A stretch of DNA of 64,000 nt from an uncultured Polyangiaceae bacterium (GTDB taxonomy: Bacteria; Myxococcota_A; Polyangia; Polyangiales; Polyangiaceae), in contig CAZVPE010000006.1 in assembly GCA_964628155.1 (NCBI GenBank), forward strand, positions 291-64,290. Reading direction: 5' to 3'. Below the pieces are notes generated by a model that did no database searches, was not told the origin of the DNA, and was given only the letters and a program-made list of their open reading frames with translations. The position numbers were made by a program, and so were the translations under genes. Of the stretch, positions 7,686-64,000 are shown piece by piece (positions within the stretch are counted from its first letter, which is position 1; each line of letters starts with the position of its first letter).

Positions 7686-10205
7686 TCACCAGTAGAGGGC
7701 CGCGTGCAGCATCCATGTTCTGGGCAAGCCAGGCGTGAAGCTGATGCCTTGCGGCGGGTTCGGGCCTTCACCCGGCAGCCGCGACTGAACGGCGAACTGC
7801 CCCTCCCGATAGGCGACATCGGCCAGGTTGAAGACGTCGGCGACGGCCTCGACGTTCTTCCAGCGTAGCCCCACTTCGGCGTCGAACACCGTGGAGCCCG
7901 TCTCCACGAGGCTGTAGTCGGGCAGGGCGGGCCGGTCGGAGATCGACCGCACGCGGAGCGAGCCGAGGATCCGGAATGGTCCCACGGGCTTGCGCACGCC
8001 GATGCCCGCCGAGAACGTCCGAATCGGAGCGTTCGGCAGGTAGACCGTGCCCGCGGCGATGTCGGCGGCGTCCGTGTACCGCGAATGAGAAACGGTCAGC
8101 GCGGCGTCGGCGAAGACGTCCTCGCGAAAGTGGTATCTCGCTGTGAACTCGCCTCCGTAACGGCGGGTCGGACCCGACGGAGACGTGGAGGCCGTGTCGC
8201 CGTCGTACGTCAGCTCCGAGGTGAGATCGAGCAAGAACCCGACGGCGGAAACCGACAGTCCCTCGACGGGCCGCAGAGCCGCCCCAACTTCGTATCCGGT
8301 CGCGGTCGCGATGAGCGTGGTCGCTGCCCCCGCGACGAGGGTGCGCCCGTCGTTGGAGTGGAATCCGCGTCCGTAGTTCGCGAAAAGGTCCAGCCAGGGT
8401 GCCGCGTAGACGATGGCCGCCGCCTTTGGGGACAGCTGAGCGGCGCCCCGCACTCCCGTAGCGCGGTCGACGGCAGTCTGGCTCTCGCTGGCGACGGCGA
8501 CGTCGATCCTGTCTTCGCGTGCCCCGATGACGAAACGCAGCCATTTGAGCGGACGGAAGTCCTCTTCGAACCACGCGGCGAGCTCCGTCTCGTTCACGGC
8601 GTCATCGACGATGGGACCCGGAATGTTCGCGTCGACGCCGTCGAGGCGCGTTCGAGCCTGCGTCCGGTGAAGCTGGGCCTCGATGGCGTCGTCGCGCAGC
8701 TGGAGACCGAAGGCCGACTGGACCGGAATTCCGGCGAGCGTGCCCCGATGGGTCAGTCGAACGGTGGCGCCGGCCTCGGTGCGGGTATCGTCCTGCTCGA
8801 TTTGCGATCCGTAGAGCGCCCCGTCGGGCTCGAAGGGCGCCGCGATTCCATCGTTGGGGAAGAGTTGCAAGTTGGAGCGCAGCGCGAACGCACTCGCGCG
8901 CAGCTCCCACGGCTCGTCGAACTGCCGCCGGTACGTCGTCGCGATCATCAAGCGCTGGCTCGCGCCGCCCTGCGTCGGATCGAACGAATCCCACCGGCTA
9001 ACGCAGTGCGACCCCGCGTACGCCGCGGGCACGGCCGTCCCGTCCCCCTCGCCGCAGACCGCGCGGGCGGGTAGGACGCCGGACGCGTTCCAGGACCCTC
9101 CGTATGCCATCACCAAGAGCGAGACGTCGCTCTGGTCGTCGAGAGCGCGCGTCGCTTTCGCGTAACCGTTGAAGCGCGAGAAGTCTTGGGGGTGGATGAA
9201 CGGCCCGTCCTCGTGGAAGACCTCGGCGGCGACGGCCAGGCGCCAGCCCGGCCCCAGATTGGGCGACTCGACCACCACCGCGCGGTCGTGACCGTACTGC
9301 CCGAGCTCGATGATCGCGACGCTCTCGGACAGGTGATCCGTCATGCGAAGCGTGACCGAGCCCGCGGTCGCGAAGTCGCCAATCCGAGCCGAGTACGGAC
9401 CCTTGGTGGAGTCGAGCGACTCGATCGTCTCGGGGATGAGGAAGTGGAGATCCGAGAATCCCTGGCCGTGCGCATGACTGACGGCGTTGATCGGGACGCC
9501 GTCCGCGAAGAAGGCGATGTCCGTTCCGTGGTCGGCGTCGAACCCTCGGAGAAAGTACTGCTGGGACTTGCCTCCGCCGCTGTGCTGGACCGTATAGAGA
9601 CCCGGCACGGCTTGCAGCACTCCCTCGGCGCGGTACCGGGGCATCCGCGAGAGCTCGGTCTGTGCGGTGCTCGAATCGGACGCGGCGATGCCAGGTGCCT
9701 CGTTCCGTTCGCCGAGGACGCGCACCTCTTGGAGCTCGGGGAGCAGCCGCGCCGGCGACGGTGCGTCGCGAGCGGGCGCTACCGCCGCGACGCTAGAGGA
9801 GCTGACCTCGGGAGTCGGCAGCGGGGGCGGCTGGAAGTCGTAGGAGAGCACGATCCTCGCGCGCACCGGCACGCCAGCCCTCTTGGCCGGTTCGAAGACG
9901 AACTGGCGGGCGGCCTCGAGCGCCGACTCGTCGAAACCGTGGCCCGCCGGTTTCGTGACTCGCGCGTCGGCGACGTGGCCTCCTTCGTCGACGACGATCT
10001 CGAGGCGCACCGTCGCCGAGAGTCGCTCGGGTAGCGCGGCGGCCGGATAGCGCGCATGAGCGTGGGCGCGCGCGACAGGTGGGGTCACGGGCGAGTCGGC
10101 CAAGGGTGCGCGTTCGTCGGCGGGCCCAGCCGCGTGCGCGGGAGTGGCCCCGAGCAAGGCCTCCAGCACCATGCACGCTTGGATGAACCGTCGCCGCGTC
10201 GGCAT
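7686..10205 (-). CDS. TonB-dependent receptor with an N-terminal TonB C-terminal-like domain
   Basis: 839 aa. The N-terminal segment YPAAALPERLSATVRLEIVVDEGGHVADARVTKPAGHGFDESALEAARQFVFEPA is TonB_C-like. It is followed by a plug (VQHSGGGKSQQYFLRGFDADHGTDI) and a long barrel ending in ALYW. Confidence 0.85.
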   Translation of the reverse strand: MPTRRRFIQACMVLEALLGATPAHAAGPADERAPLADSPVTPPVARAHAHARYPAAALPERLSATVRLEIVVDEGGHVADARVTKPAGHGFDESALEAARQFVFEPAKRAGVPVRARIVLSYDFQPPPLPTPEVSSSSVAAVAPARDAPSPARLLPELQEVRVLGERNEAPGIAASDSSTAQTELSRMPRYRAEGVLQAVPGLYTVQHSGGGKSQQYFLRGFDADHGTDIAFFADGVPINAVSHAHGQGFSDLHFLIPETIESLDSTKGPYSARIGDFATAGSVTLRMTDHLSESVAIIELGQYGHDRAVVVESPNLGPGWRLAVAAEVFHEDGPFIHPQDFSRFNGYAKATRALDDQSDVSLLVMAYGGSWNASGVLPARAVCGEGDGTAVPAAYAGSHCVSRWDSFDPTQGGASQRLMIATTYRRQFDEPWELRASAFALRSNLQLFPNDGIAAPFEPDGALYGSQIEQDDTRTEAGATVRLTHRGTLAGIPVQSAFGLQLRDDAIEAQLHRTQARTRLDGVDANIPGPIVDDAVNETELAAWFEEDFRPLKWLRFVIGAREDRIDVAVASESQTAVDRATGVRGAAQLSPKAAAIVYAAPWLDLFANYGRGFHSNDGRTLVAGAATTLIATATGYEVGAALRPVEGLSVSAVGFLLDLTSELTYDGDTASTSPSGPTRRYGGEFTARYHFREDVFADAALTVSHSRYTDAADIAAGTVYLPNAPIRTFSAGIGVRKPVGPFRILGSLRVRSISDRPALPDYSLVETGSTVFDAEVGLRWKNVEAVADVFNLADVAYREGQFAVQSRLPGEGPNPPQGISFTPGLPRTWMLHAALYW

Positions 10206-18464: not shown

Positions 18465-19307
18465 TCAGAGCTCCCGCCGATCGAGGAGGCTCGAAATCCG
18501 ATCGAACCGGAGCACCGGCCCGTCTCGGCACAAGAACGACTCGCGATACTGGCAGTGACCGCAGAACCGCAACGCACATTTCATGTTCCGCTCCATGGAG
18601 ACGAACATTCGGTCGCCCGGGAGGCCCCGGTTCGCGAGCGCGCGCGCGGTGAAGCGCATCATCACTTCCGGTCCGCAGATCATCGCGACCGTCGCGGCGG
18701 TGTCGATCGACACCTTGTCGAGAAGTGCCGGCACGACGCCGACGGGCCCGACCCAGTCTGCCTCCGCATGGTCCACGGTGACGTGGACACGCCCGTCGAG
18801 CTTCTTCTCCCAGCGCGCGACCTCCTTTCGATAGACGAGGTCCGCAGGGCTACGGGCCCCGTAGAGGAGCGTGACGTTGCGGAAGCGCCCCCGCTGGCGA
18901 ACGAGCTCGTAGACAACCGGCCTGAGCGGAGCGATCCCGAGTCCGCCCGCGATCACGATCACGTCTTTGCCGAAGGCCTGGTCGACCGGCCACCCGGCTC
19001 CGTACGGGCCGCGAACGCCGACCGTATCGCCGCGCTTGAGGCGCTGCATCGGTGTCGTAACGCTGCCGACTGCGCGAATCGTGTGGACCAGCGCGTGCGT
19101 CTGATTCGGGTCGCCGCTGATCGAGATCGGGACCTCGCCCACCCCGAAGAGGTAAAGCATGTTGAACTGACCGGGAGCGAACGAGAATCCACCGTTCGCG
19201 ACGTCGAGCCAGAGCGTGAAGGTGTCGGCGGTTTCTTGGGTGCGGCGCAGCACTCGGACCGGTTGCGGAAGCCACGGGTCAGCGCCGGCCGCGAATGGTT
19301 CGCTCAT
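18465..19307 (-). CDS. hyhG: Hydrogenase gamma subunit: FNR-like FAD/NAD(P)-binding protein with C-terminal 2Fe-2S
   Basis: 280 aa. Flavin-reductase pattern ([18 protein letters not shown]) and C-terminal [17 protein letters not shown]. Confidence 0.8.
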
Positions 19308-52292: not shown

Positions 52293-53132
52293 TTGACGAG
52301 ACCTCAAACTTTCAGATGGGGCAGGTTTGCGCGTCGGTTGGGCGTGGCGCTGGGAGTTGCATACGTGTGCTCAGCACTTCTGCTGGTTGCGGGCGAAGAG
52401 GTCATGGCCCGTTGGCACGACCGAGATGCCGTGATGAACGGTTCAGGGGCTGATGTTTGGCTGCGCACAGACGACGGTGTGCGCTACTACGCTCGAGATC
52501 CGGCTTTGCCAACATTGCTTTATTTTCACGGCGGAGCGGGAAACCTCGCGAGCCGCAGCGATCGGCTCGAACTTTTCGCAACCCTGGGCGCCAACTTGTT
52601 CGCGATTGACTATCGCGGCTACGGTCCAAGCGAGGGGACAGCTTCGGAGCATGGTCTTGAGCTCGACGCCGCCGCTGCCTACGCCTGGCTGCGCGAGCAT
52701 ACGGAGGCCGCTAAAATCGTACCATTCGGAGAGTCGGTCGGCGGCGGACCCGCGACATGGTTGGCGATCTCGCGTCCGGTGGGCGGGCTTATCCTGCTCT
52801 CCGCCTCCACCAGCACCCCGGAACTCTTTGGTCGCTACATGCCATGGTTGCCGACGCAACTGCTGGTACGCATGCACTTCGACAATCTGCACAGGATCAA
52901 TCAAGTGACCGTTCCAAAGTTGTTCATCCACTCACGTTCGGACGGGGTCGTACCCTTCGACATGGCGGAAGCGTTGTGGTCGGCCTCGTCAGAGCCGAAG
53001 CGACATCTCTGGCTCGACGGTGTCGGCCACAACGAGACGTTCTACAAGTCGCGAAAGGAAGCCAGTCTGGCGATACGCGAATTTTTGTCTTCGCTCGGCA
53101 ATCGCAATGCGGATCTCGAGAACCGCCGGTGA
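52293..53132 (+). CDS. Alpha/beta hydrolase (serine aminopeptidase S33-like)
   Basis: N-terminal TM anchor, HGGAGN, nucleophile elbow GESVGG and a late Asp and His (SRSDGVVP, GVGHNE). GC content is visibly lower than the flanks. Confidence 0.8.
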   Translation: MTRPQTFRWGRFARRLGVALGVAYVCSALLLVAGEEVMARWHDRDAVMNGSGADVWLRTDDGVRYYARDPALPTLLYFHGGAGNLASRSDRLELFATLGANLFAIDYRGYGPSEGTASEHGLELDAAAAYAWLREHTEAAKIVPFGESVGGGPATWLAISRPVGGLILLSASTSTPELFGRYMPWLPTQLLVRMHFDNLHRINQVTVPKLFIHSRSDGVVPFDMAEALWSASSEPKRHLWLDGVGHNETFYKSRKEASLAIREFLSSLGNRNADLENRR

Positions 53133-53166: not shown

Positions 53167-54408
53167 TCACCGTGGCGCCGAAACAGGAGCCGCGGGTACC
53201 GCCGGCGCGGCCCGCTCGGGCACGAGGCGGTGGATTCGGCTCATCATGACGACCGTCACGAGCGAAGTTCCGACGATGATGTACCCGATTTTATCGAAGT
53301 GAAGAAGAACGCCGCCGGGTCCCTCGACGACCACGAGTCCGGCGATCGCCGAGGCGAACCCCCCCGAGATCTGCTGCACCGAAGAGCTGACCGACATGAA
53401 CGAGCCCCGCGTGTCCGGCGAGGGGATCGCCGAGAGCAGGGCTTGCGATGGGACCATCCGGGAAAAGATGCCGACGAACAGCACCGCGTTGATTGCGATC
53501 AGCAGCGGCAGCGGGGTCCTGCCGAGGTGCGTGTAGATGAGGACCATGAGGATGGTCACGGACGTTCCGAACACGAACGTTCGGAACTTGCCGAATCGAT
53601 CGGCCGCGCGGCCCACGAGCAGCCCGGTGAAGATCGTAAAGCCCCCGGTGACCAGATAGAGGAGGGGCAGCTTCTCGATGCCGATGCCCAGATTGTGAAC
53701 CGTGTAAGCGCTACCGAACGGCATCAGCATGAAGCCGCCCGTGCTGAGAAGCGCCGTGGTCGCAAACGCCTGGAGGTAGCGCCCCTTGGTGACCGTGGCC
53801 CTCAAGTGGCCCATCGGTCCGATTCGGCTGCCTTTCAGGTGCAAGTGAGCGTCGATCGGTCGGAGCCAGATCACGATGACGACGCCGACCACCGAGCTGA
53901 CGGCGACGATCATGATGAAAGGCGCGTGCCAGCCCCATAGATTCGAGAAGAAGAGGCCGGCCGGAATGCCGAGCACCTGGCTCGCGGCGAAGGCCGTCTG
54001 GACGAACCCCATCACCCGACCGCGCATCTCGAACGGGAACAAGTCGGTGGTGATGGCGAAGACGATCGAGCCGATGACGCCGCCGAAGACCCCGGTGACC
54101 ATGCGCGCGGCGAGAAGCACTTGGTAGCTCGTGGCCATACCGCAAAGCAGCGTTCCCAGTACGAAGCCGCAGTAGAAGAAGAGCAAGAACTTCTTGCGGT
54201 CGAAGCGATCGGCGAAGCCAGCGGCGAGAAACCCCGAGATGCCCGCGCTGAACGCGTAGACCGAGACGACGAGCCCGAACTCGGAGGGGGTGATGCCGAG
54301 CGCCGGCATGAGGACGGCGCCCAGTGGCGACAGCGTCATGAAATCGAGGATGACGGTGAACTGCAAGAAGGCCAGGAGAGCGACGACGAACTTCTGGTAG
54401 CGGCTCAC
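53167..54408 (-). CDS. MFS transporter
   Basis: About 12 TM helices and MFS motif GFLAAGFADRFDRKK. The GTG start at 54408 forms a GTGA overlap with the upstream stop. The longest ORF start (54474) would overlap the upstream gene by 70 nt. Confidence 0.85.
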   Translation of the reverse strand: MSRYQKFVVALLAFLQFTVILDFMTLSPLGAVLMPALGITPSEFGLVVSVYAFSAGISGFLAAGFADRFDRKKFLLFFYCGFVLGTLLCGMATSYQVLLAARMVTGVFGGVIGSIVFAITTDLFPFEMRGRVMGFVQTAFAASQVLGIPAGLFFSNLWGWHAPFIMIVAVSSVVGVVIVIWLRPIDAHLHLKGSRIGPMGHLRATVTKGRYLQAFATTALLSTGGFMLMPFGSAYTVHNLGIGIEKLPLLYLVTGGFTIFTGLLVGRAADRFGKFRTFVFGTSVTILMVLIYTHLGRTPLPLLIAINAVLFVGIFSRMVPSQALLSAIPSPDTRGSFMSVSSSVQQISGGFASAIAGLVVVEGPGGVLLHFDKIGYIIVGTSLVTVVMMSRIHRLVPERAAPAVPAAPVSAPR

Positions 54409-54845
54409 GGGGCGCCCGTTTCGGTTTGCGGACCCAAGAGGTCGATATGAAGGTAAGCGCCGCATTGCGGGCAATACCCGGTTTTATCCGTCGCTTCGAT
54501 CCTTGTCTTGCATCGAGGGCACTTGGCCCATCTCGCCCCTTCCCGTTCGTCGCCGTCGGCCGTGGACATGAGCGCGACTTCGAGCGGAGTGCGACGTTCG
54601 TCGTCGACCGCCAGCGGAGCGTTCGGGTCGCCACCACGCTCGCGGATCCATTTCGTCAGATCCCCGAGCGTGGGCTTGGTGGAAGCGATGCGCAGGTCCG
54701 GACGTCGCTTCAACGCTCCCATTCGGATCAACGCTTCGACCGCCGATGAGACGAGCTCGATGCGTTCTTTCGAGACGGCCGCGATTTCGCCCACGTGAAC
54801 GAAGCGCCCATGAACGATGCGGAGAACGTCGGCGTAGCTGGCCAT
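54405..54845 (-). CDS. Hypothetical protein with a C-terminal zinc ribbon
   Basis: 146 aa from MASYADVLRIV. CPRCKTRIEATDKTGYCPQCG. The N-terminal half is helical. Confidence 0.5.
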   Translation of the reverse strand: MASYADVLRIVHGRFVHVGEIAAVSKERIELVSSAVEALIRMGALKRRPDLRIASTKPTLGDLTKWIRERGGDPNAPLAVDDERRTPLEVALMSTADGDEREGARWAKCPRCKTRIEATDKTGYCPQCGAYLHIDLLGPQTETGAP

Positions 54846-54990: not shown

Positions 54991-55506
54991 TCATTGAAGC
55001 GCGGCGATGAGCTCCTCGAGCTGGTCCAGCGTCGCGCGCATGCCGCCCTCCATGCCCGACTCGATGGCGCCGTCGAGCACCTGCTTGGACGGATAGAGCT
55101 CGTGGGAGACGACCTGCGTCTTGCCCTCTTGCTCGTCGAACGCCACCGTGATGAGCCCTTCCCCGGCGGCACGCATCGGCTCGAATATCTGCGTGAACGC
55201 GAGGCGCGTGTGCGGCGCGACCTCCGTGTACGTGCCCGAAAAGGCCATCGAACGAGCCTCGTCGTGCCCGAAGACGAAGCGGTAGCTCCCGCCGACGCGG
55301 AGGTCGACGTCGCACGAGAACAGGGTGACGCCGAGGGACTTGGGCGCCCACCAGCGCTTGAGCAGCTCGGGCTTCGTCCACGCGTCGAAGACAATCCGTG
55401 CCGGCCCGTTGAAAGTGCGTGTGATGACGAGCTCGCGATCGGAGCGGCGCTCGACGACGGTGCGGTTCACGGGGGCGGTCTCATTTTCTCTTCTTGCTGC
55501 GTTCAT
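54991..55506 (-). CDS. SRPBCC/AHSA1-family protein
   Basis: ELVITRTFNGPARIVFDAWTKPELLKRWW...GGSYRF...GTYTEVAPHTRLAFT is the typical Aha1-like pattern. It is paired with an ArsR gene. Confidence 0.8.
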   Translation of the reverse strand: MNAARRENETAPVNRTVVERRSDRELVITRTFNGPARIVFDAWTKPELLKRWWAPKSLGVTLFSCDVDLRVGGSYRFVFGHDEARSMAFSGTYTEVAPHTRLAFTQIFEPMRAAGEGLITVAFDEQEGKTQVVSHELYPSKQVLDGAIESGMEGGMRATLDQLEELIAALQ

Positions 55507-55825
55507 TGTGTTTCTCCGTTTCTTTGAGCTCTAGGACGAGCTCGTCCAGTGCCTCGAATCGCGCGTCCCACACTCTTCGGTAGCGTTCCAGCCAGTCGTG
55601 AAGTTGGCGAAGGGGCTTCGCCCGAAGCTCGTAGAGCCGCTGCTGGGCGTGCGGCTGCGCATCCACGAGCCCGGCTTCTTTCAATACTCGCAGATGCTTC
55701 GAGACCTGCGGCTGGTTGAGCCGAAGTCGCTCACCGATTTCGTTCACGGCCCGAGGGCCGGAGCGCAGCAGCTCCACGATGCGAAAGCGGTTGGGTTCGG
55801 AGAGGGCCGCGAAGGTCTCGATCAC
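55481..55825 (-). CDS. ArsR/SmtB-family transcriptional regulator
   Basis: FAALSEPNRFRIVELLRSGPRAVNEIGERLRLNQPQVSKHLRVLKEAGLV. Confidence 0.85.
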   Translation of the reverse strand: MIETFAALSEPNRFRIVELLRSGPRAVNEIGERLRLNQPQVSKHLRVLKEAGLVDAQPHAQQRLYELRAKPLRQLHDWLERYRRVWDARFEALDELVLELKETEKHNERSKKRK

Positions 55826-55963: not shown

Positions 55964-56302
55964 TCATCGGCGGAACCCATACGCGCGTTCGACCCTGCAC
56001 ACGCGGAGTTCGTACGCTCCGTACCAGCGCTCGCGTCCAAGACGCTGAGCGGCCGCGTGCTCCGCCACGGCCTTCCACGCTCGGATGGCCTCCATGGTCG
56101 CCCAATACGAGACTGTGATGCCGACCCCGTCAGGCCCGCGTGCGCTTTCGATGCCGAGATACCCGGGCTGCTTCGACGCAAGCGCCTCCATCGCATCGGC
56201 CATCGCCGCATAGCCAGCGGGATCCTCGGTCGTGCGCTCCGAGGTGAAGACGACCGCGTAATAGGGGGGCTCGGGCGTCGCGGCCAATTTCGAACGCTCC
56301 AT
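55964..56302 (-). CDS. Antibiotic biosynthesis monooxygenase (ABM) family protein
   Basis: From MERSKL. YYAVVFTSERT...QPGYLGIESAR...ITVSYWATMEAIRAWK...WYGAYELRVCRVERAY. Confidence 0.75.
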   Translation of the reverse strand: MERSKLAATPEPPYYAVVFTSERTTEDPAGYAAMADAMEALASKQPGYLGIESARGPDGVGITVSYWATMEAIRAWKAVAEHAAAQRLGRERWYGAYELRVCRVERAYGFRR

Positions 56303-56472
56303 GACCGGCCGAACTCTACGTGTGGAACGCGCACTCCGCACCCGGTTCAATCCTTGGACGATCGGGAATTCCGCACGAAGAGAAGGCGCGGCTGCGACGG
56401 CCGTCGTGGACGTGGACGACGGCTGTTGTCCACGTTCGGGCTCGCCTTCGATGGCGCGCGGACGTCACCCCC

Positions 56473-57081
56473 TCACTGCACGACGTACGACAGGGGATCG
56501 CACCAATCCCCCACCCCACTTCGCGTGACCGGTCGCATCCGAAACGAGTACGTCCTCGCCGGCGTCAGCCCCGTCACCGTCGTCTTGGCCTGCAGCGTCC
56601 TCGGCTGGTCGACCCAGGCCTCGCCCGCGTTTTGGCGCAGCTGCCACTCGTAGCTCGCGACCTTCGCCACCGCCTTGGCGACGAGACGGACCGAGCCTGA
56701 CAGGTTTCCCGGAAGGACCGCGAGCGCCGGCTTCGGTTTCGTGCTTCGCGCCGCGACGCCCATCCGGGCCTCCTCGATGATCGACTGCGCAAACTCGGGG
56801 TTTTCGTCGGCGACACCTTGCACGTATGCCTTCAGCCGCGTGAGCAGCTTGACCAGCGCGGAAACGGCTTCGTCGCGCGCTTCCTTCAGCCCGCGCGTGC
56901 GTGCGAGCGCCGCCGTCTCGGTGTCCGAGAGCTTGTCGATCGCCGCTTGGACGGTGGCCAAGGGCGGTACCGGCGCGGAAAACCAGCGGTTGCCGGTCAT
57001 GCCCTCGACGATGGCCTGGGCGCGCAGAATCAGCTCGGGGATTTTGGTGGGCCGCTTCAGGGCGACCGGGACCCGTTTCAT
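56473..57081 (-). CDS. Hypothetical protein with a C-terminal fibronectin type III-like domain
   Basis: From MKRVPVAL. Helical N-terminal half, then YEWQLRQNAGEAWVDQP...VTGLTPARTYSFRMRPVTRSGVGDW. Confidence 0.55.
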   Translation of the reverse strand: MKRVPVALKRPTKIPELILRAQAIVEGMTGNRWFSAPVPPLATVQAAIDKLSDTETAALARTRGLKEARDEAVSALVKLLTRLKAYVQGVADENPEFAQSIIEEARMGVAARSTKPKPALAVLPGNLSGSVRLVAKAVAKVASYEWQLRQNAGEAWVDQPRTLQAKTTVTGLTPARTYSFRMRPVTRSGVGDWCDPLSYVVQ

Positions 57082-57319
57082 GTTGTTCCGCGCGCGGTGA
57101 TCCCGCATGGGACTCGAGCGCACTCCGTCGCGCACCCCGCGCAAGACACGACGCCGGACGACCCGGTGCCAGGGTGTCGCCCGGTGTCCGGTGACGCACC
57201 CGAAGCAGGAACTCCTCGCATTTCTGGAGGAAAAAGACGTTGCACGGATGCGGCGCAAAGATTGCTGGTGTCGTCTTGGTCATCCGGGTGGCCCACAACC
57301 TGGTGCACGGAGCTGGCGA

Positions 57320-57639: not shown

Positions 57640-58761
57640 TCAGTACTTTTGAGAGTACTGGTACATCGTGACCCCGCCGCGGCTAATCGCGATGGAGAAG
57701 GTTCCCCACTGCTGAACCCCGTTGACCGTGCGCGTCGCCCACTGCGAGGCGTGCGTGGCGTCGGCCAAGAGCAGGTTCGCGTTGATGACGAACGGGTTGG
57801 CCTGCGTCCCGAGGAGATTGCTGTTCGGGTCGAATTGCGAGCCGGGCTCCGCGTACGGAACCGGGTCGATGATCATCGAAGAACGGCAGGTGGCCGACGG
57901 ATTGTTCCAGCAGTTGGTCGGATTGAAGCTCTCGAACGCCCAGTTCTGGGGCGTTCCGTTGATCGAGACGAGAAGGTACGGGTTGGAGCCGGTCCGGCCC
58001 ATGTACGGCGTAAACGATTCGTTTGCGTTGTCGATCGTTTGGCCTTCGGCGGTGCCGCCCGTGACGCCGGTGTAAGCCGAGGGAGCGCTTCGCCAGTCGC
58101 TCACGGGCGGGAACGAGATCGGCAGATACTTCGACGTATCGCTAACCGACTCCGACAACGTCACGGCCGTCGACGTGCACCACGAACCGCTCGTAAGGGT
58201 CACATAGTGACTGTTGTTCGAGCTGGTGGAGTCCGAGAGGTGGACCGTCGAGCTCTGGCCGGTCTTGAATTGCGCGAGCGCCGGAATCGAGAAGATCGAC
58301 GGATAGTATTTGCCGTTGGTGAACTTCTGGGCGAAGAACAAGCCATTCGCGAGGTAGGACCCCACGGTGGCGTCGGTCTGACCAAGGGCCAGAATCGCCT
58401 GCATTTTGGCGTTCACGTGGGCGTACAGGGGATCGCTCGTGTCGAACTGGATGCCCGGGCCGAGGCACTCCCACGAATTGCAAGTGGTGCCGGGCAAGTA
58501 CGTATACCGCTGCGGCGCCAGGATCGACCGAGCGGCGAGCAGGTTTCCGTCGGCCTGCGCCTGCTGCGCCGCGGCGACCATCAGGTTGAACGCGATCGTC
58601 GCGGCAGCGAGCTCCTGTCCACTCGTCGAGTCGCTCGGACAGGAGGTGACGGCCTCCGACGAACGCGCCAGTTCTTCGGAGGTCATCACGTCGGTCGCGC
58701 AGGCGCTTACGGACGCGAGACAGAGGGCGGCGGGTATGGCAATGAATGCACGCTGAGACAT
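57640..58761 (-). CDS. Orphan secreted lipoprotein, Ser/Thr/Asn-rich
   Basis: From MSQRAFIAIPAALCLASVSAC (lipobox). 373 aa with 8 Cys and no domain I recognise. GC content is markedly lower: one 60-nt line I hand-counted was about 53%. Confidence 0.6.
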   Translation of the reverse strand: MSQRAFIAIPAALCLASVSACATDVMTSEELARSSEAVTSCPSDSTSGQELAAATIAFNLMVAAAQQAQADGNLLAARSILAPQRYTYLPGTTCNSWECLGPGIQFDTSDPLYAHVNAKMQAILALGQTDATVGSYLANGLFFAQKFTNGKYYPSIFSIPALAQFKTGQSSTVHLSDSTSSNNSHYVTLTSGSWCTSTAVTLSESVSDTSKYLPISFPPVSDWRSAPSAYTGVTGGTAEGQTIDNANESFTPYMGRTGSNPYLLVSINGTPQNWAFESFNPTNCWNNPSATCRSSMIIDPVPYAEPGSQFDPNSNLLGTQANPFVINANLLLADATHASQWATRTVNGVQQWGTFSIAISRGGVTMYQYSQKY

Positions 58762-59152: not shown

Positions 59153-60298
59153 TCACTCTTGCGAGACGAAGAGTTGCTCGACTTCGGCCGGGCTCAGGGC
59201 ACGATTGTAGATCCGGAAGTTGTCGATCTGACCGTTGAAGTAGGGATCCGCGGGGAACTGCGACCGGCCGAGCCAGTTCTGCATGGTGACACCCAGACGC
59301 GCGGGTGTGAGCGTAATCGTCGTGACTTGCTGGATCTGGACGCCGGAGACGTAAAGAGTCCCTGTCGAGCCCTGCAACGTAATCGCGACGTCTTGCCACA
59401 CGCCGGTCGGCAGCGCGTTGGTCTCGTAGACATCCTGCTCCGCATTGGCCGTGTTGATCGAGATCCCGAAACCGCGACCGGCGCTGCTGGGCGTAAAGTA
59501 CATATACTGGTTGATGCCCGACCCGAAGTCGAACAAGCGATCGAAGCGCTGCGACACATTCACACGGACCCACGCGGTAATGGAAAAATCGGTCAACGTG
59601 CTGACGATTCCGGCGGGGAGCTCGACATACTGGCCTTTTCCGTTCATCGTCGCGGCGTTGCCGGTAAGGCCGGAACTGAACGTGGCCCCCACCATCGTCG
59701 CCGCATGGCAGTTTCCCGAGACGTCGTTCGCCGTCGTTCCGATTGCCTCGTCGAATCGGTAGTCCGCGACGAGGCCGACCGCCAAACCACCCCCGTCGGT
59801 TGCCACGTCTCGGGTTGGGACACAGGCGCCGTTTGCGTCGCTGTCTGAGTCGGCGACGGCGCCCGCGTCGCGCAGCGGCGTTCCTTCGGGCCCGGTCGAC
59901 GGAGAGGGGCTCCCATCCGCGACTGCGCTTCCCCCCTCCGCCTGCCCCGAGGCAGGCGCGCCTTGCTCTTGGCCGAGCCCGCCGAGGTCACCCGGTCCGG
60001 CGGATGGAGCCGATACCCCGGTTTCGACGCCATTTTGCCGCGCGCCATCGAAGGTGTCCCCGCCCACGCTCCCTTCGGCCTGCGGCCCTTGGACGACCGG
60101 AGCGTCTTCGTAGCCCCCATCCGGGCCGAGCGTCGAGTCGACGAATGACGCGTCCGCCGTTCCGTCCGACACCCCCAAAGAAGATCCGCCTTGGTCCAGT
60201 CGGTCGGGGTCGTAGATCAGCGAACAATGAAGAAGGGATCCGGAACAAACGATTGCAGCGCAGCCGAACCAACGAGTCGCCGACGGCATCGAGAACAC
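59153..60298 (-). CDS. Secreted LamG (concanavalin A-like, Laminin_G_3) domain protein
   Basis: Signal peptide with a Cys-containing h-region, a Gly/Asp/Ser-rich linker, then LVADYRFDE...GQYVELPAGI...DFSITAWVRV...WQDVAITL...GQIDNFRIYNRALSPAEV. Confidence 0.8.
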   Translation of the reverse strand: MFSMPSATRWFGCAAIVCSGSLLHCSLIYDPDRLDQGGSSLGVSDGTADASFVDSTLGPDGGYEDAPVVQGPQAEGSVGGDTFDGARQNGVETGVSAPSAGPGDLGGLGQEQGAPASGQAEGGSAVADGSPSPSTGPEGTPLRDAGAVADSDSDANGACVPTRDVATDGGGLAVGLVADYRFDEAIGTTANDVSGNCHAATMVGATFSSGLTGNAATMNGKGQYVELPAGIVSTLTDFSITAWVRVNVSQRFDRLFDFGSGINQYMYFTPSSAGRGFGISINTANAEQDVYETNALPTGVWQDVAITLQGSTGTLYVSGVQIQQVTTITLTPARLGVTMQNWLGRSQFPADPYFNGQIDNFRIYNRALSPAEVEQLFVSQE

Positions 60299-60505
60299 TC
60301 CAGCAAATGCCGTAGCACCAAACGACGGGCAGGCCCGTCGAGTTCTTCGTGTATTTGCTCTTCATGGGATAGGCGCCGCGCGGCAATCGCGGAATACCCG
60401 GTCGACATCGACACTCGGAACGGCTGTCTCTGGATTTTTCGTCAACGGGCACTGCGCAACAGGAGGCGCCGGCGGCTCGGGCAGCGCCTCCGCCACCGCA
60501 GACAT

Positions 60506-60961
60506 TTACCGCACGCATCGAACCCAATAGGCACCGGAAGGCGCGCTGCAGCTCGAAGCTCCGGTACGGAAGTCGACGTACCAGGCGCCGGCGGCCGGGG
60601 TGGTGCACGGCGTGGAGGTCCAGAAGTAGCCGGCCGGCGTAGCGGGAAACGCGACCGGATCGATCGCGGGAGGAGCTGTGGCCGAGAAGTCCTCAATCGT
60701 CACCAGCTCCTTCATCGTCGGCAGCCGCCACCCCGCGGCTCCGTTCAGAGTGAGGCCCGAGCAATAGGTCGCGGCGGCGGTTTGTGCGAGCATGACCGGC
60801 GCGATCGTTTGCTGCCAAGTTCGAGTCGTCTTCGAGTCGTAGACAGTCCCGGTAGAGACGGTATATCGGGTCCCGTGCGCGGCCGCGCGTGCGGCCACGA
60901 TCGGGACCATCGCGATGGCGGGGATCGCGGCGCGAAGAAGCCAGATGGACCATCGTTTCAT
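60506..60961 (-). CDS. DUF1566 (Lcl C-terminal-like) secreted protein
   Basis: From MKRWSIWLL. YCSGLTLNGAAGWRLPTMKELVTI...FWTSTP...AWYVDF...WVRCVR. Confidence 0.8.
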   Translation of the reverse strand: MKRWSIWLLRAAIPAIAMVPIVAARAAAHGTRYTVSTGTVYDSKTTRTWQQTIAPVMLAQTAAATYCSGLTLNGAAGWRLPTMKELVTIEDFSATAPPAIDPVAFPATPAGYFWTSTPCTTPAAGAWYVDFRTGASSCSAPSGAYWVRCVR

Positions 60962-60998
60962 CGGATTCTCTCGGAATGGGCCGGACAAGCCGGCACGT

Positions 60999-62033
60999 TC
61001 AGCGAACGCATCGAACTTGTGCGTCGAAGTTGCTGCCCAGAATGGCGGTATATCCGCCGCCAAAAAATACGTCCCAGCCGTTTCCGGCCGGCGGCTGCGC
61101 GAACGGCGTGGAGGACCAAAAGGCCTGTGGGGGCGTATTCGGGAAGTAGGTCTTGTCGATTGTGGGAGGCGCCACGCCCGGGTCGACGATGGACACGAGC
61201 TCGACGACCGTCGGCAGTCGCCAATCCGTAAAGCCCCCGAGGCTGAGCCGGGCACAATAGGCCCTGGCATCCGCCTGAACGTAGATCGTCTCCGGGACCG
61301 CTTGCTGCCAGACGAGGCCCGTGACGTTGTCCGTGACTGTGCCGTCGCCGTTGTCCGCATAGCTCTCCGGGGTCGGAGCCCCGGCCGCGACGTCGACCGG
61401 AGCGTTGGGCATCGGCCATTCGGCCCAACCCGGATCGACGCACGCCGCCATTGGATACCGCTCGCAGACCAGACCCGCGGCACAGGGCGACGGGGTGGCC
61501 GTGCACCCGGTAGTCCCCACGGAACACGACAGAATCTCGGTGCTGCTCTCCGCGAGGCACGAGGGTCCCCCGTCGCATCCGTCCGTACAGCAATCGCCAT
61601 AGGCCGAATCCGGGCAGACGGACGAGGACGAGCCGCTTCCGCAGTCGTTGCCGCACGCCATCGCGCCGGCCTCCGGCTCCGGCGCGGCGTTCGCATCGGC
61701 CGCGGCTACGGGGACGTTCGGCTGCGCATCTCCCGCGACGTCGGTTTGCGCGTCTCCCGCCAGGGTGGCGTCTGCGTTGGCGGATGGAACATCGCCGGCC
61801 GCAGCGTCTCCGTTTTCACCCGAGTCGTCGCCTCGAGGGGGCTCTCCGTCGCCGTTCGCGTCGAGGGCTTGGGCCGAGCCGAGTCCTTGTCCTTCGTCGG
61901 AAGCATCGGTGCCAAACGTCCCATCAGCCTCCCCGTCTGCGGTACCGGCGCGTTCCTCCGGCCCCAACCCCTCGGGGCTCGGGCGACATGCGGCCAGCGC
62001 CGCGACGAGGAGAACGTCCGTCACCCGCCGCAT
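60999..62033 (-). CDS. Lipoprotein: acidic linker, Cys-rich module and DUF1566 domain
   Basis: From MRRVTDVLLVAALAAC. 14 Cys between residues ~127 and 198 (ACGNDCGSGSSSSVCPDSAYGDCCTDGCDGGPSC...). Then YCARLSLGGFTDWRLPTVVELVSI...FWSSTP...VRCVR. Confidence 0.8.
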   Translation of the reverse strand: MRRVTDVLLVAALAACRPSPEGLGPEERAGTADGEADGTFGTDASDEGQGLGSAQALDANGDGEPPRGDDSGENGDAAAGDVPSANADATLAGDAQTDVAGDAQPNVPVAAADANAAPEPEAGAMACGNDCGSGSSSSVCPDSAYGDCCTDGCDGGPSCLAESSTEILSCSVGTTGCTATPSPCAAGLVCERYPMAACVDPGWAEWPMPNAPVDVAAGAPTPESYADNGDGTVTDNVTGLVWQQAVPETIYVQADARAYCARLSLGGFTDWRLPTVVELVSIVDPGVAPPTIDKTYFPNTPPQAFWSSTPFAQPPAGNGWDVFFGGGYTAILGSNFDAQVRCVR

Positions 62034-62117
62034 GGGTGGGGTCCTGCGCTGACGTAGCCGTTTCGCAGGTCGCTTTGCACCACGCTTACCCCCCGCAGCT
62101 CGAGTGAGCGGCCCGGC

Positions 62118-62136
62118 GCAAGGGAGTCGCCCTTGC
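62118..62136 (-). other. GC-rich stem-loop between the HExxH gene and the DUF1566 lipoprotein gene
   Basis: gcaaggg-agtcg-cccttgc has a 7-bp stem and 5-nt loop with no U tract. It lies about 70-85 nt after the HExxH stop. It could be a terminator, attenuator or processing site; the function is not established. Confidence 0.3.
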
Positions 62137-62203
62137 AACACCCAGCTATACGCTCCCGGGGGCGAACCGTAAACTTTGGTGCGCTCGCAAATCGCTCGGC
62201 TGA

Positions 62204-63796
62204 TTACGCCGCCAGCAAGACCGCGATCAAGCTCTGACTCGACCTCTCGACCATCGCCTGAATCCTCTGTTCGAGCGCGATCGACTCGGGCGAAGGCGGG
62301 CGGCGCAAGCCGTAGCCATCGGCGGAAAACTTCTGGAGGATCGTCGCGACGACGTTGCGAAACCGCAAGAACTCCGCTCCGACGGCCTGGTCGGGGCGGC
62401 GCACGGAGGCCTCCTGGAGCCGGCCCGAGTCGGGTCCCTCCGCGTCGATGACGCGAAGCACGCCGGCGATCGTGTCCGCTTCGTCGGCGATGACCCCCAG
62501 AAGGGCGGCCTCGAGCTCGGGGGGGAGCTTTTTGCCCGCAATCGTGACGGCTTCGACGAGATAGCGGTGGAGCAGAAGATGAATGTAGGAAGTCTCGAGC
62601 GGCGGCGGCGCGGCGTCGACGCCTTGGAGGACCGAGAGAAGCCAGTCGACGAGGAACCGTCCGGCCGGTCCGAGCTCCGGCCAACACAATTCTTTGATCT
62701 TTCGTCCGAGATACTGCGCCCGCTCCAGCGCATCGCGCTTGTTGGTCATCGCGGGCGCGACTCCATACGGCGAACCGAATCGGCTCGCGAGCTCCGCCAT
62801 TCGCCGCTCGGTCTGAAGGCAGACCACCGCTTGGTGGACGTAGACGTGGAACGCGGCAACGGCGCGGAACGCGTCCCAGTAGTTTACCGGATGGGCTCCT
62901 CCGACATTCCAGATGGCCGAGACCCGGGCGACGTTCTCGGTGGTTTCGGGCGTGAGGTCCTCCGTCAGGAGGGAGTGGGTGTGGCGAAAATCGTAGAGCT
63001 TCTGGTGCAACGATTCATGGAGCAGGTGCTCGGCTACCCACCACGGGTTCTGGAGCATCTTGCGGTTGATGAAGATCGTGCCGCTTATCCGAAATTCCGA
63101 GCACGACCCCTTCCGGCTCCAGGTACCGGCGTGAGGAACGAGGACGACCAGGTGGGTATGACCGAGCACGCTGTGCGACGTGAGCGGCATGAGCAGGCGG
63201 AGCAAGGTCGCCCCTTTGGCGAGCAGGGCCAGGTCGTCGGGCTTCGGCGTCATCAGCGGCTGACCGCCGAAGTTCTCGTGAACGATCTTGCGGAAGGCGC
63301 GGCCGAACACGTCGTCCGAGTGGGCTTCGCTCCACACCCAGCCGTAGCCGGGCGCCGCTCCGATGCGACGGACATTGCCTCCGCCGGCCTCGAGGGGTCC
63401 CCCCGCGCTGCCTTCCTTCAAAAGGCGGATCGTCTCGCGAAAGATCTCCTCGTGCTCCGGCTGCGGCGCGTCGTGACGCTGGGCTTGGTGAATCGTGTTG
63501 CGGACGACCGGATCGCCGATCACCCGATAGCGAACGTCGTCGGTCGCGTCGTCGAGAGCGCGCGCGAGCTCGCCCGCGACAGGGATAGTCGCGGCGAGTC
63601 GTCCGAGGCGCTGCTTGTACCGGACATGCAGATGTTCGTGGAGATACTCGCTGTCGCCGAACGGCCGATGTCGAGCCAAGAGCTCGTCGACCATGTCGAG
63701 CGGGTGCGGCGGCGCTTGGCCCGCCGGCCGCGGCGCGCTCGTGACTCCCGAACTTCGTTTCGCGCTCGATTGTTTTCGTCGACTGGCTGAGCCCAT
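62204..63796 (-). CDS. Large HExxH-motif protein (resembles the TIGR04267 'HEXXH motif domain' peptide-modifying family)
   Basis: 530 aa, no signal peptide, basic Ser/Arg-rich N-terminus. Central WWVAEHLLHESLHQKLYDF (HESLH at 63005-63019) and a second HEHLH near residue 53. Family assignment is by motif context only. Confidence 0.6.
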   Translation of the reverse strand: MGSASRRKQSSAKRSSGVTSAPRPAGQAPPHPLDMVDELLARHRPFGDSEYLHEHLHVRYKQRLGRLAATIPVAGELARALDDATDDVRYRVIGDPVVRNTIHQAQRHDAPQPEHEEIFRETIRLLKEGSAGGPLEAGGGNVRRIGAAPGYGWVWSEAHSDDVFGRAFRKIVHENFGGQPLMTPKPDDLALLAKGATLLRLLMPLTSHSVLGHTHLVVLVPHAGTWSRKGSCSEFRISGTIFINRKMLQNPWWVAEHLLHESLHQKLYDFRHTHSLLTEDLTPETTENVARVSAIWNVGGAHPVNYWDAFRAVAAFHVYVHQAVVCLQTERRMAELASRFGSPYGVAPAMTNKRDALERAQYLGRKIKELCWPELGPAGRFLVDWLLSVLQGVDAAPPPLETSYIHLLLHRYLVEAVTIAGKKLPPELEAALLGVIADEADTIAGVLRVIDAEGPDSGRLQEASVRRPDQAVGAEFLRFRNVVATILQKFSADGYGLRRPPSPESIALEQRIQAMVERSSQSLIAVLLAA

Positions 63797-63844: not shown

Positions 63845-64000
63845 TTAAACCGCCTCGGCGAAGAGCCCCCTTTCCAGTGCAAACGGAAGGGCGAGACGCT
63901 CCGGGTGCGGTACGTTTGCGTGGCGAATGGAACCCAGCGAACCAGGCACGGGCGACGCTGGCGGAGCGAGCGCCGGCGCAAGCGAGACGACCACCCACAA
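63845..64000 (-). CDS. Possible 3' end of a CDS that starts beyond the right window edge
   Basis: My translation gives an open frame from the edge to TAA at 63845-63847: LWVVVSLAPALAPPASPVPGSLGSIRHANVPHPERLALPFALERGLFAEAV*. It ends 48 nt upstream of the HExxH gene on the same strand. GC3 is only about 70%. Confidence 0.3.
   Translation of the reverse strand: MWVVVSLAPALAPPASPVPGSLGSIRHANVPHPERLALPFALERGLFAEAV

Follow-up and report, generated by a model that had tools for sequence, protein, structure and literature searches.

A probable orphan HExxH-fold oxygenase of the Polyangiaceae and the secreted-protein genes beside it

We propose that a 530-aa protein encoded on the minus strand (62204–63796) of the window, the whole 64-kb stretch of DNA analyzed here, is an orphan, active-looking oxygenase of the aKG-HExxH fold, a reading that its sequence and its predicted structure make reasonably probable. 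Its relationship to the aKG-HExxH peptide hydroxylases is supported by a near-threshold HMM match, by the invariance of its HExxH motif and by a fold match specific to PDB entry 8S5F. Enzymes of this family were recognized only in 2024 and, to our knowledge, they are so far RiPP tailoring enzymes only, with reactions that are not yet predictable. The product of the 530-aa ORF would be a cytoplasmic non-haem-iron/2-oxoglutarate oxygenase with an HExxH fold of the type of the ChlB HExxH domain. Because peptide and methyltransferase genes are absent nearby, the enzyme is regarded as an orphan, and its substrate would be encoded elsewhere in the genome or would have changed. An orphan oxygenase followed by genes that do not form a conserved operon is, taken as a whole, the explanation that we consider likely.

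The HExxH protein, its family and its fold

The four ORFs described in an earlier note on this DNA are all on the minus strand where it had placed them, with the domains that it had described. For the 530-aa ORF, the ATG at 63796 is backed by an N-terminus, MGSAxRRK, that is common to P0002, P0003 and P0009. The first 34 residues are rich in Ser, Arg, Lys and Pro and contain no hydrophobic stretch; the protein lacks a signal peptide, and residues 1–26 have a pLDDT below 50 in the AF2 model.

The resemblance to TIGR04267 (IPR026337, aKG-HExxH-type peptide beta-hydroxylase) that had been pointed out is upheld by an E-value of 2.1e-9 and by the 8S5F fold match, but the score of 37.6 bits, over residues 194–298 and profile positions 3–101 of 177, falls under the curated cut-off of 40 bits. 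The model also matches all 29 aligned homologues at an E-value of 1e-3 or better (best 5e-11), and these scores place the ~500-residue HExxH subfamily at the edge of TIGR04267. The databases searched give the subfamily no name, and it did not come up in the literature that was searched; some of its Streptomyces members (P0100) bear the aKG-HExxH-type peptide beta-hydroxylase name in NCBI. A Pfam search with the 530-aa protein returned no family, and hence no peptidase family.

The AF2 model (pLDDT 87.4, pTM 0.87) is nearly all helical. When it was compared with the PDB using Foldseek, the top matches were the chains of 8s5f (E 1e-7 to 4e-7, prob 1.0, TMt 0.63–0.67), followed by 22ob (SjiH-Ni) at an E-value of 5e-5, and every other match had an E-value above 0.5; 8S5F and 22OB are the two solved structures of the aKG-HExxH type. 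The protein in 8S5F is the HExxH domain of ChlB (ChlBH/ChlH), which acts as an aKG-dependent beta-hydroxylase on His/Asp (Morishita et al., Nat Chem 2024, as cited in PMC12636437 and PMC13060819). This domain, the top structural match and almost the sole one (TMt 0.67 at E 1e-7), shares with the window protein a conserved HExxH and a helical, zincin-like fold distinct from that of the DSBH oxygenases. However, the two are only 13% identical, and the window protein exceeds the domain by ~200 residues and has additional helical regions at its N- and C-termini; unlike the ChlB system, it has neither a cyclophane-forming partner nor a precursor peptide nearby. Because the TIGR04267 score is below the cut-off and a sequence-profile search with the HExxH protein found no PDB chain, the tie to characterized enzymes rests on the fold together with a weak HMM match.

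The homologues found number more than 300, and the subfamily as a whole comprises 511 clusters at 50% identity, each with a representative. The earlier note had singled out the central HExxH, here HESLH at residues 260–264 (63005–63019, minus strand), and its conservation is clear: H260 and H264 are invariant in alignment A1, E261 is nearly so (at least 90%), and all three are also kept across 130 sequences covering both the Polyangiaceae clade and the other members. Alignment A1 has 50 further invariant columns. The HESLH is the presumed metal-binding motif, and the Fe/2OG site would comprise H260 and H264 together with further polar residues that are invariant, namely H213, E256, H274, N297, D308, R311, H317, Y319 and R359. 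The second HEHLH that had been noted (residues 53–57; 63626–63640, minus strand) does not hold up as a motif, as its last His is variable and the family consensus is YxHEQLx.

Peptide-bearing relatives and the Polyangiaceae clade

Outside the Polyangiaceae, the relatives of the window protein have a dedicated partner. An upstream gene for a peptide of 55–95 aa directly adjoins the HExxH gene in 87 of 94 such loci (HMM), and this peptide consists of a leader that is helical, (D/E)L-x-x-(D/E)L-x-x-(M/L)Q-x-x-x-D, and a core rich in His and Asp, of the form GHHDHDH or HDHD...HHDH. Many members, though not all, also have an O-methyltransferase, either as a fused domain or encoded next to the HExxH gene; a tblastn search with this domain located it in 18 loci of the first set. 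This cassette of peptide and ~500-aa HExxH protein, with or without the methyltransferase, is found in Janthinobacterium, Streptomyces, Acidobacteriota, Puia, Planctomycetota, Binataceae and alpha- and beta-proteobacteria, and the peptide-partnered subfamily extends over at least eight phyla. By analogy with ChlH, the enzymes would most likely hydroxylate the side chains of His or Asp in the partner peptide, which is possibly metal-binding. With its 511 clusters and its own His/Asp-rich peptide, the subfamily is a target for genome mining. The reactions described for the aKG-HExxH family as a whole are hydroxylation of His, Asp, Gln, Phe and Pro and cleavage of the backbone (PMC12636437, PMC13060819).

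The window protein is clearly akin to the cassette enzymes, to which it is 34–48% identical over its full length (residues ~33–527). Among the 130 sequences, 76 conserved positions are common to the Polyangiaceae and the other members, including every invariant His, Glu and Arg, whereas clade-wide switches in the Polyangiaceae are limited to three positions, E234, F340 and R365. The genes nearby set the clade apart: the His/Asp-rich peptide gene is present in none of the 33 loci of the true Polyangiaceae clade (HMM), and the O-methyltransferase (tblastn) is in no Polyangiaceae locus and not in the window. The best peptide-HMM E-values were 4.8 over the 64-kb window and 0.8 over the Polyangiaceae loci, where the search reached 10 kb to either side of the gene in 20 lineages. 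A search for HDHDH-coding DNA gave nothing of note, no other conserved small ORF was found, and neither the window nor the loci of the Polyangiaceae clade have a precursor-like ORF.

Maturation genes of the usual RiPP kind are likewise missing beside the window gene, in agreement with the earlier statement that no radical-SAM partner is nearby. BpmH, PflC/PosC and PesO, the characterized stand-alone members of the family, belong to RiPP clusters, where their gene is accompanied by genes for a precursor, an MNIO, an rSAM enzyme, a protease or a transporter (PMC12636437, PMC13060819); the window gene has no such companion. A neighbor-joining tree (midpoint-rooted, unbootstrapped) has the Polyangiaceae clade as monophyletic and nested inside peptide-bearing clades. 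The Polyangiaceae clade has kept the enzyme, with essentially all of the subfamily-conserved residues, but not the peptide gene, and genes for DUF1566 lipoproteins are repeatedly adjacent to it.

The neighboring secreted-protein genes

The neighbors of the HExxH gene in the window encode a molybdopterin oxidoreductase, Lcl_C (DUF1566) proteins, a LamG protein and a lipoprotein. Directly downstream on the minus strand is the gene for a 344-aa lipoprotein (60999–62033) that has a lipobox start, MRRVTDVLLVAALAAC, an Asp/Gly/Ala-rich linker, a Cys-rich module and one Lcl_C domain (PF07603, 3e-27). It is followed by the gene for a 151-aa secreted, single-domain Lcl_C protein (60506–60961, minus strand), which begins with the signal-peptide-like MKRWSIWLLRAAIPAIAMVPIVAARA. 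Its start is most likely at 60961 (MKRWSIWLL...) rather than at 61696, and the PF07603 match of 1.3e-24 was obtained with the longer ORF. Further along the same strand are genes for a 381-aa Laminin_G_3 (LamG-like) protein (59153–60298; PF13385, 1e-29) and a ~373-aa lipoprotein (57640–58761) that starts MSQRAFIAIPAALCLASVSAC and has no Pfam family. As the gaps along this run are 170, 37, 207 and ~390 nt, tight packing is limited to the two Lcl_C genes. The 344-aa lipoprotein has an orthologue in L012/L062 (59% in the domain, 66% across 35 aa of the Cys-rich module), the 151-aa protein has one in L062, and a 41% homologue of the ~373-aa lipoprotein is encoded in L001, 1.3 kb downstream of the HExxH gene and on the opposite strand.

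The gene that the earlier note saw leaving the window upstream does exist, but it is divergent and not a member of an operon with the HExxH gene. Only its 5' start is in the window (63927–64000, plus strand; translation MEPSEPGTGDAGG), separated by 130 nt from the HExxH gene, and it was read as a molybdopterin oxidoreductase with the Mo-bisPGD Fe4S4 motif CNRDCPDACG from the 99%-identical contig L060, where it is also on the opposite strand. The same divergent neighbor is present in L001.

The genes downstream do not make up a conserved operon; three of their features, the LamG protein, the Cys-rich module and the lipoprotein, are local. Gene neighborhoods vary among the closest homologues of the HExxH protein, at odds with the conserved neighborhood that had been put forward as a check. 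LamG drops out as a partner, since by tblastn it is in no locus other than the window, as does the Cys-rich module, which is in the window and one other lineage (L012) only. Eukaryotic AspH is a DSBH (cupin-type) oxygenase of the ER lumen, and its likeness to the window is confined to the proposed beta-hydroxylation of Asp/Asn and to the presence of a Cys-rich module, itself so restricted, in a neighboring secreted protein; the window protein differs in its fold and in being cytoplasmic. A DSBH-type (AspH-like) beta-hydroxylase was rejected for the HExxH protein, as the model is helical and DSBH proteins are absent from its Foldseek matches.

The pairing with DUF1566 fared better, in part. Five of 20 Polyangiaceae lineages have co-directional Lcl_C genes no more than 1 kb from the HExxH gene, downstream in the window and L118 and upstream in L008, L063 and L078, and two more have them within 3.1 kb. 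In the nearest 1 kb, Lcl_C genes number 14.7 per 100 kb, compared with ~1 per 100 kb at 2–10 kb, an enrichment of about ten-fold. In L063, the Lcl_C stop and the HExxH start overlap by 4 nt. The enrichment, the shared direction on either side and this overlap take the adjacency beyond a purely incidental neighborhood. On the other hand, the gene order varies, and in 13 of the 20 lineages an intact enzyme is encoded with no Lcl_C gene in flanks of up to 10 kb, among them L001, the closest relative with long flanks (73% identity). Moreover, the same block contains unrelated genes that recur much as Lcl_C does, namely a PSD/HXXSHH pair, an FGE-sulfatase, X478 and the Mo-oxidoreductase, and this pattern fits inherited synteny. 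The recurrent DUF1566 neighbors are best explained as what is left of an ancestral clade arrangement, Lcl_C-Lcl_C-HExxH-X478 (as in L063 and L078), that has eroded in most lineages.

Alternative explanations

A pairing of the enzyme with the adjacent secreted proteins is possible, if weakly supported. In its specific form, the Polyangiaceae enzyme was recruited to hydroxylate the adjacent DUF1566 (Lcl_C) lipoproteins in the cytoplasm before Sec export, or is otherwise coupled to them, and they replace the peptide. The proximity, density and gene overlap given above are all in its favor, as is the scatter of the Lcl_C-adjacent loci over the clade in the tree, the adjacency having outlived changes in gene order. 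The loss of the peptide also coincides with the new neighborhood, and the three clade-specific switches are of charge or polarity. We nevertheless regard this recruitment as unlikely, given the 13 lineages that keep the enzyme without Lcl_C genes, the similar recurrence of unrelated block genes and the loss of LamG and the Cys-rich module as conserved partners. In addition, the neighboring Lcl_C genes are of two different types, their products have no leader-like or His/Asp-rich motif and are exported whereas the enzyme is cytoplasmic, and the 20 lineages are not independent samples. A change of role within the Polyangiaceae, from ancestral tailoring of a small His/Asp-rich peptide to the modification of secreted DUF1566 lectin-like lipoproteins, or to some other joint function with them, is in our estimation quite improbable. 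If true, it would connect the aKG-HExxH family for the first time with exported proteins instead of RiPP precursors, and would offer a first hint of what DUF1566 proteins do in myxobacteria. More generally, orphan enzymes acting on proteins would widen the substrate scope of the aKG-HExxH family; if they do not, the window simply encodes an ordinary orphan enzyme, in a region where many genes specify secreted proteins.

The enzyme might instead still modify a His/Asp-rich, leader-bearing peptide encoded elsewhere in the genome. Such a split cassette would be consistent with the nesting of the clade within peptide-bearing clades and with the retention of the 76 subfamily positions along the full length, among them positions in the helical regions that flank the catalytic core at the N- and C-termini, with three positions differing clade-wide. 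It would also be unusual, as the peptide gene is immediately adjacent in nearly all of the other loci, and neither the window nor the 10 kb to either side of the gene at the loci of the 20 lineages yielded such a peptide. Of the 67 clusters that the peptide profile retrieved from the protein database, most carry no label and none is labelled Polyangiaceae or Myxococcota. We therefore give this reading little credence and prefer an orphan oxygenase whose substrate would be encoded elsewhere or have changed. HExxH is classically the signature of zincins, and a conventional zincin-type metallopeptidase, or an inactive relic, would also be in keeping with a TIGR04267 score under the cut-off. The aKG-HExxH fold is itself reminiscent of zincins, and PflC has some hydrolytic activity (PMC12636437). 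Even so, such an identity is very improbable: a zincin protease fold was rejected since the best protease-like match, leukotriene A4 hydrolase (4gaa), has an E-value of 0.84 and prob 0.15, compared with 1e-7 and 1.0 for 8s5f, and a Pfam peptidase family is absent, while the strong conservation of the protein across more than 20 Polyangiaceae lineages speaks against a relic.

The HExxH protein and its family

The 530-aa protein (62204-63796, minus strand) matches no Pfam family. Over residues 194-298 it is recognized by the NCBIfam model TIGR04267, "aKG-HExxH-type peptide beta-hydroxylase," with an E value of 2.1e-9 and a score of 37.6 bits that falls below the curated cut-off of 40 bits, so the family match foreseen in an earlier note on this DNA is borne out by its E value and falls short in score. 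There are more than 300 homologues; the exact window sequence has no database record, and a shorter gene call that is 99% identical (P0001) led to a metagenomic contig, L060. In an alignment of 29 sequences (39-73% identity), all of which match TIGR04267, the HESLH residues H260 and H264 do not vary and E261 hardly varies, as the earlier proposal of an HExxH enzyme implied. H213, E256, H274, W296, N297, W307, D308, R311, H317, Y319, and R359 are also invariant. The family consensus at residues 53-57 is YxHEQLx, so the HEHLH found there, previously pointed out as a second copy, is not a motif.

A confident AlphaFold2 model was built from the 29-sequence alignment (pLDDT 87.4, pTM 0.87), and in it the N-terminus, which has no hydrophobic segment, is disordered. 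A Foldseek search of the PDB with this model retrieved 8S5F, [quoted passage not shown] (E 1e-7, prob 1.0, TMt 0.67), and one other significant entry, 22OB, "SjiH-Ni" (E 5e-5), while all further matches, including the best protease-like one, had E values above 0.5. PDB searches using the protein sequence or a profile as the query gave no match, hence the protein is only remotely related to the characterized members and the fold search alone succeeded. With the TIGR04267 match, the conserved HESLH and the predicted fold pointing the same way, the assignment of the protein to the HExxH enzyme family holds.

A peptide-enzyme cassette in related loci

Related loci were taken from genome and metagenome collections as two sets, of 54 and 80, and clustering of all ORFs in the first set revealed only two partners that are common across phyla, an O-methyltransferase domain and a small upstream ORF. 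The O-methyltransferase often accompanies the enzyme, as a C-terminal fusion, as a divergent gene (in Streptomyces) or as a gene just downstream. The small ORF lies directly upstream of the HExxH gene and encodes a peptide of 55-95 aa with a common leader, (D/E)L-x-x-(D/E)L-x-x-(M/L)Q-x-x-x-D, and a His/Asp-rich core of the form GHHDHDH or HDHD..GG.GHHDH. The Janthinobacterium peptide MSDSAPGGSSNAKAKLQMVLSRLLDGVTDDDLQKIQTEVDEMELRMKGDGHHDHDHPTVA is an example, and others contain ...HDHDSxGGxGHHDH.... An HMM built from 28 such peptides located one directly upstream of the ~500-aa HExxH gene in 87 of the 94 non-Polyangiaceae loci whose upstream sequence is 400 nt or longer. Examples are at 3066-3323 in L016 and, preceding HExxH genes at ~10001, at 9705-10007 in L025, 9533-9820 in L030, ~9755-9937 in L033 and ~9750-9943 in L022, with some 80 more loci of the same arrangement.

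The Janthinobacterium locus (L033, 5647-16104) contains the peptide and enzyme as a two-gene island between the housekeeping genes tig/clpX and an RND efflux operon, a convergent pair encoding AcrB and an HlyD-type MFP, and no dedicated protease or methyltransferase gene is present in this region. In another locus (L031, ~9530-10000) two tandem peptide genes (...ADHQHNHMNDHDNTAFVEP...) precede an HExxH-methyltransferase fusion. The peptide ORF of Janthinobacterium violaceinigrum (L053, ~9780-9950) is degenerate, with ...RMRGDSHPAPA in place of the His/Asp core, and its enzyme is the most divergent of the genus (34% identity to the window protein), so this may be a decaying cassette.

No NCBIfam model matches the small peptides, their named database relatives are all "hypothetical protein" except for one spurious JGI label, and the literature search returned nothing relevant on a His/Asp-rich precursor or on the ~500-aa HExxH subfamily. 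CoiH, a lanthipeptide sulfoxide enzyme, was weighed as a possible guide to the homologues associated with a methyltransferase and was set aside, as its published description is of a novel fold that lacks known oxygenase motifs and shows no evident site for a metal or cofactor. The reactions of characterized aKG-HExxH enzymes on RiPP precursors are hydroxylation of His, Asp, Gln, Phe, or Pro residues and, in some cases, backbone cleavage (PMC12636437, PMC13060819), and by analogy we infer that the ~500-aa subfamily would hydroxylate the His/Asp core of its cognate peptide. Cassettes of peptide, enzyme and, in many loci, methyltransferase occur in eight phyla or more, and clustering the enzyme subfamily at 50% identity gives 511 clusters. 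The cassette has the look of a RiPP-like system that is new and may bind metal; previously unnamed, it is the most useful by-product of the analysis.

The Polyangiaceae copy and its neighborhood

The window has a G+C content of ~67% and carries five minus-strand genes between 57.6 and 64.0 kb. In addition to the HExxH gene, these encode a 344-aa lipoprotein (60999-62033; Lcl_C/DUF1566, 3e-27), a 151-aa secreted protein (60506-60961; Lcl_C/DUF1566, 1.3e-24), a 381-aa LamG protein (59153-60298; Laminin_G_3, 1e-29) and a lipoprotein of ~373 aa with no Pfam family (57640-58761). The 151-aa protein has a signal-peptide-like start, MKRWSIWLL, at 60961, although the mechanical ORF reaches 61696. The ORF, Pfam, NCBIfam, and N-terminus results thus agree with the earlier description of these genes. 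PADLOC detected no defense-system signature in the five proteins, and a scan of 57-64 kb gave no promoter-like sites and no more terminator-like sites than expected from shuffled sequence. Ordinary neighbors are genes for an alpha/beta hydrolase (52293-53132, plus strand) and, on the minus strand, an MFS transporter (53167-54474), overlapping AHSA1/SRPBCC (54991-55506) and ArsR-family regulator (55481-55825) genes, an ABM monooxygenase-like protein (55964-56350) and a protein weakly matching fn3 (56473-57258).

The gene cut off by the end of the window, noted earlier as an upstream gene, is on the opposite strand. Contig L060, which is 99% identical and reaches beyond position 64000, shows that 63927-64000 (plus strand) encodes the N-terminus of a molybdopterin oxidoreductase, and a gene for such an enzyme (7830-9845) is likewise divergent from the HExxH gene at L001, the locus of a 73%-identical homologue. 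The HExxH gene is therefore the first of its transcription unit. The intergenic region is just 130-155 nt in the window organism and L001, and hence the two promoters are probably shared or overlapping. The 130 nt in the window leave no space for a precursor gene, and neither this gap nor the 170 nt downstream contains a small ORF.

Neighborhoods vary among the closest homologues. LamG is confined to the window, the Cys-rich module to the window and L012, and the 373-aa lipoprotein to the window and L001, which removes the first two as recurring partners of the enzyme. The proposed co-occurrence with DUF1566 is upheld in part. Among 20 lineage representatives, which are not independent, five have a co-directional tandem Lcl_C cluster within 1 kb, located downstream of the HExxH gene in the window and L118 and upstream in L008, L078, and L063, where 4 nt are common to the Lcl_C stop and the HExxH start. 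In L012 the cluster is divergent at 1.8 kb and in L002 convergent at 3.1 kb, and the other 13 representatives, L001 included, have no Lcl_C gene nearby. Cluster density falls from 14.7 per 100 kb within 1 kb to ~1 per 100 kb between 2 and 10 kb, and no Lcl_C gene is found in the non-Polyangiaceae loci. The association within the clade is real and non-random.

A probable orphan enzyme and the alternatives

In an unbootstrapped NJ tree of 130 sequences, the window protein falls in a monophyletic clade whose labeled members are Polyangiaceae or Myxococcales MAGs and which is nested among peptide-bearing clades. The peptide HMM found the upstream peptide in none of the 33 loci of this clade; the fragments L088 and L098 carry the peptide and are assigned by identity to the neighboring L082-L084 group, outside the clade. 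Searches with the same HMM produced no match anywhere in the 64 kb of the window (best E 4.8) and noise in all frames of the clade's flanks (best E 0.8). The single one-mismatch match to HDHDH-coding DNA in the window, at 18948, is at the level of chance (13 of 100 shuffled sequences have one or more). The only other conserved small ORFs within 1.5 kb of the gene in 23 Polyangiaceae loci are alternative frames of Lcl_C genes, and there is no O-methyltransferase gene in the window or the clade's loci. The clade retains 76 positions common to the other clades and differs clade-wide from all of them at only three, E234 (Q elsewhere), F340 (Y) and R365 (E), two of which alter the charge and are candidates for determining specificity. 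Judged by the retained residues, the enzyme appears active and hardly altered, and its substrate would be encoded somewhere other than beside its gene.

The most likely reading, to which we give somewhat better than even chances, is that the window protein would be an orphan oxygenase of the aKG-HExxH fold with a non-adjacent substrate, and that its DUF1566 neighbors would be left over from the locus of the clade's ancestor. A functional link to the DUF1566 lipoproteins would be the more interesting outcome and could draw on their clustering near the gene, but we consider it unlikely. As stated, the radical-SAM-less, secreted-protein-modifying system of the earlier note fails. Four observations speak against the Lcl_C proteins as substrates. 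The enzyme is kept in the many lineages where Lcl_C is missing nearby. Moreover, other genes of the block (the PSD/HXXSHH pair, FGE-sulfatase, X478, the molybdopterin oxidoreductase) are found again about as often, in shuffled positions, a pattern that is expected from eroding ancestral synteny. The Lcl_C proteins also represent two distinct orthologue types, and they have lipoboxes or signal peptides and no leader-like or His/Asp-rich segment. A split cassette, in which an unlinked His/Asp peptide serves the window enzyme, is about as improbable as the DUF1566 link.

A shuffled block of genes, all for secreted proteins, recurs around the HExxH gene in Polyangiaceae (L063, 2555-13221; L002, 11857-20070; L001, 4579-7730; and L078), comprising HXXSHH (DUF1552), a PSD-domain protein, the tandem Lcl_C lipoproteins, the Thr/Gly-rich X478 and X300, and the FGE-sulfatase. 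Low-complexity lipoprotein genes are generally common around the HExxH gene in this family, and Ser/Gly-repeat secreted proteins, one of which has a BfoA_C domain, flank it in a 68% relative (L061, 20-994, minus strand) and in the 73% relative (L001, 11720-12838).
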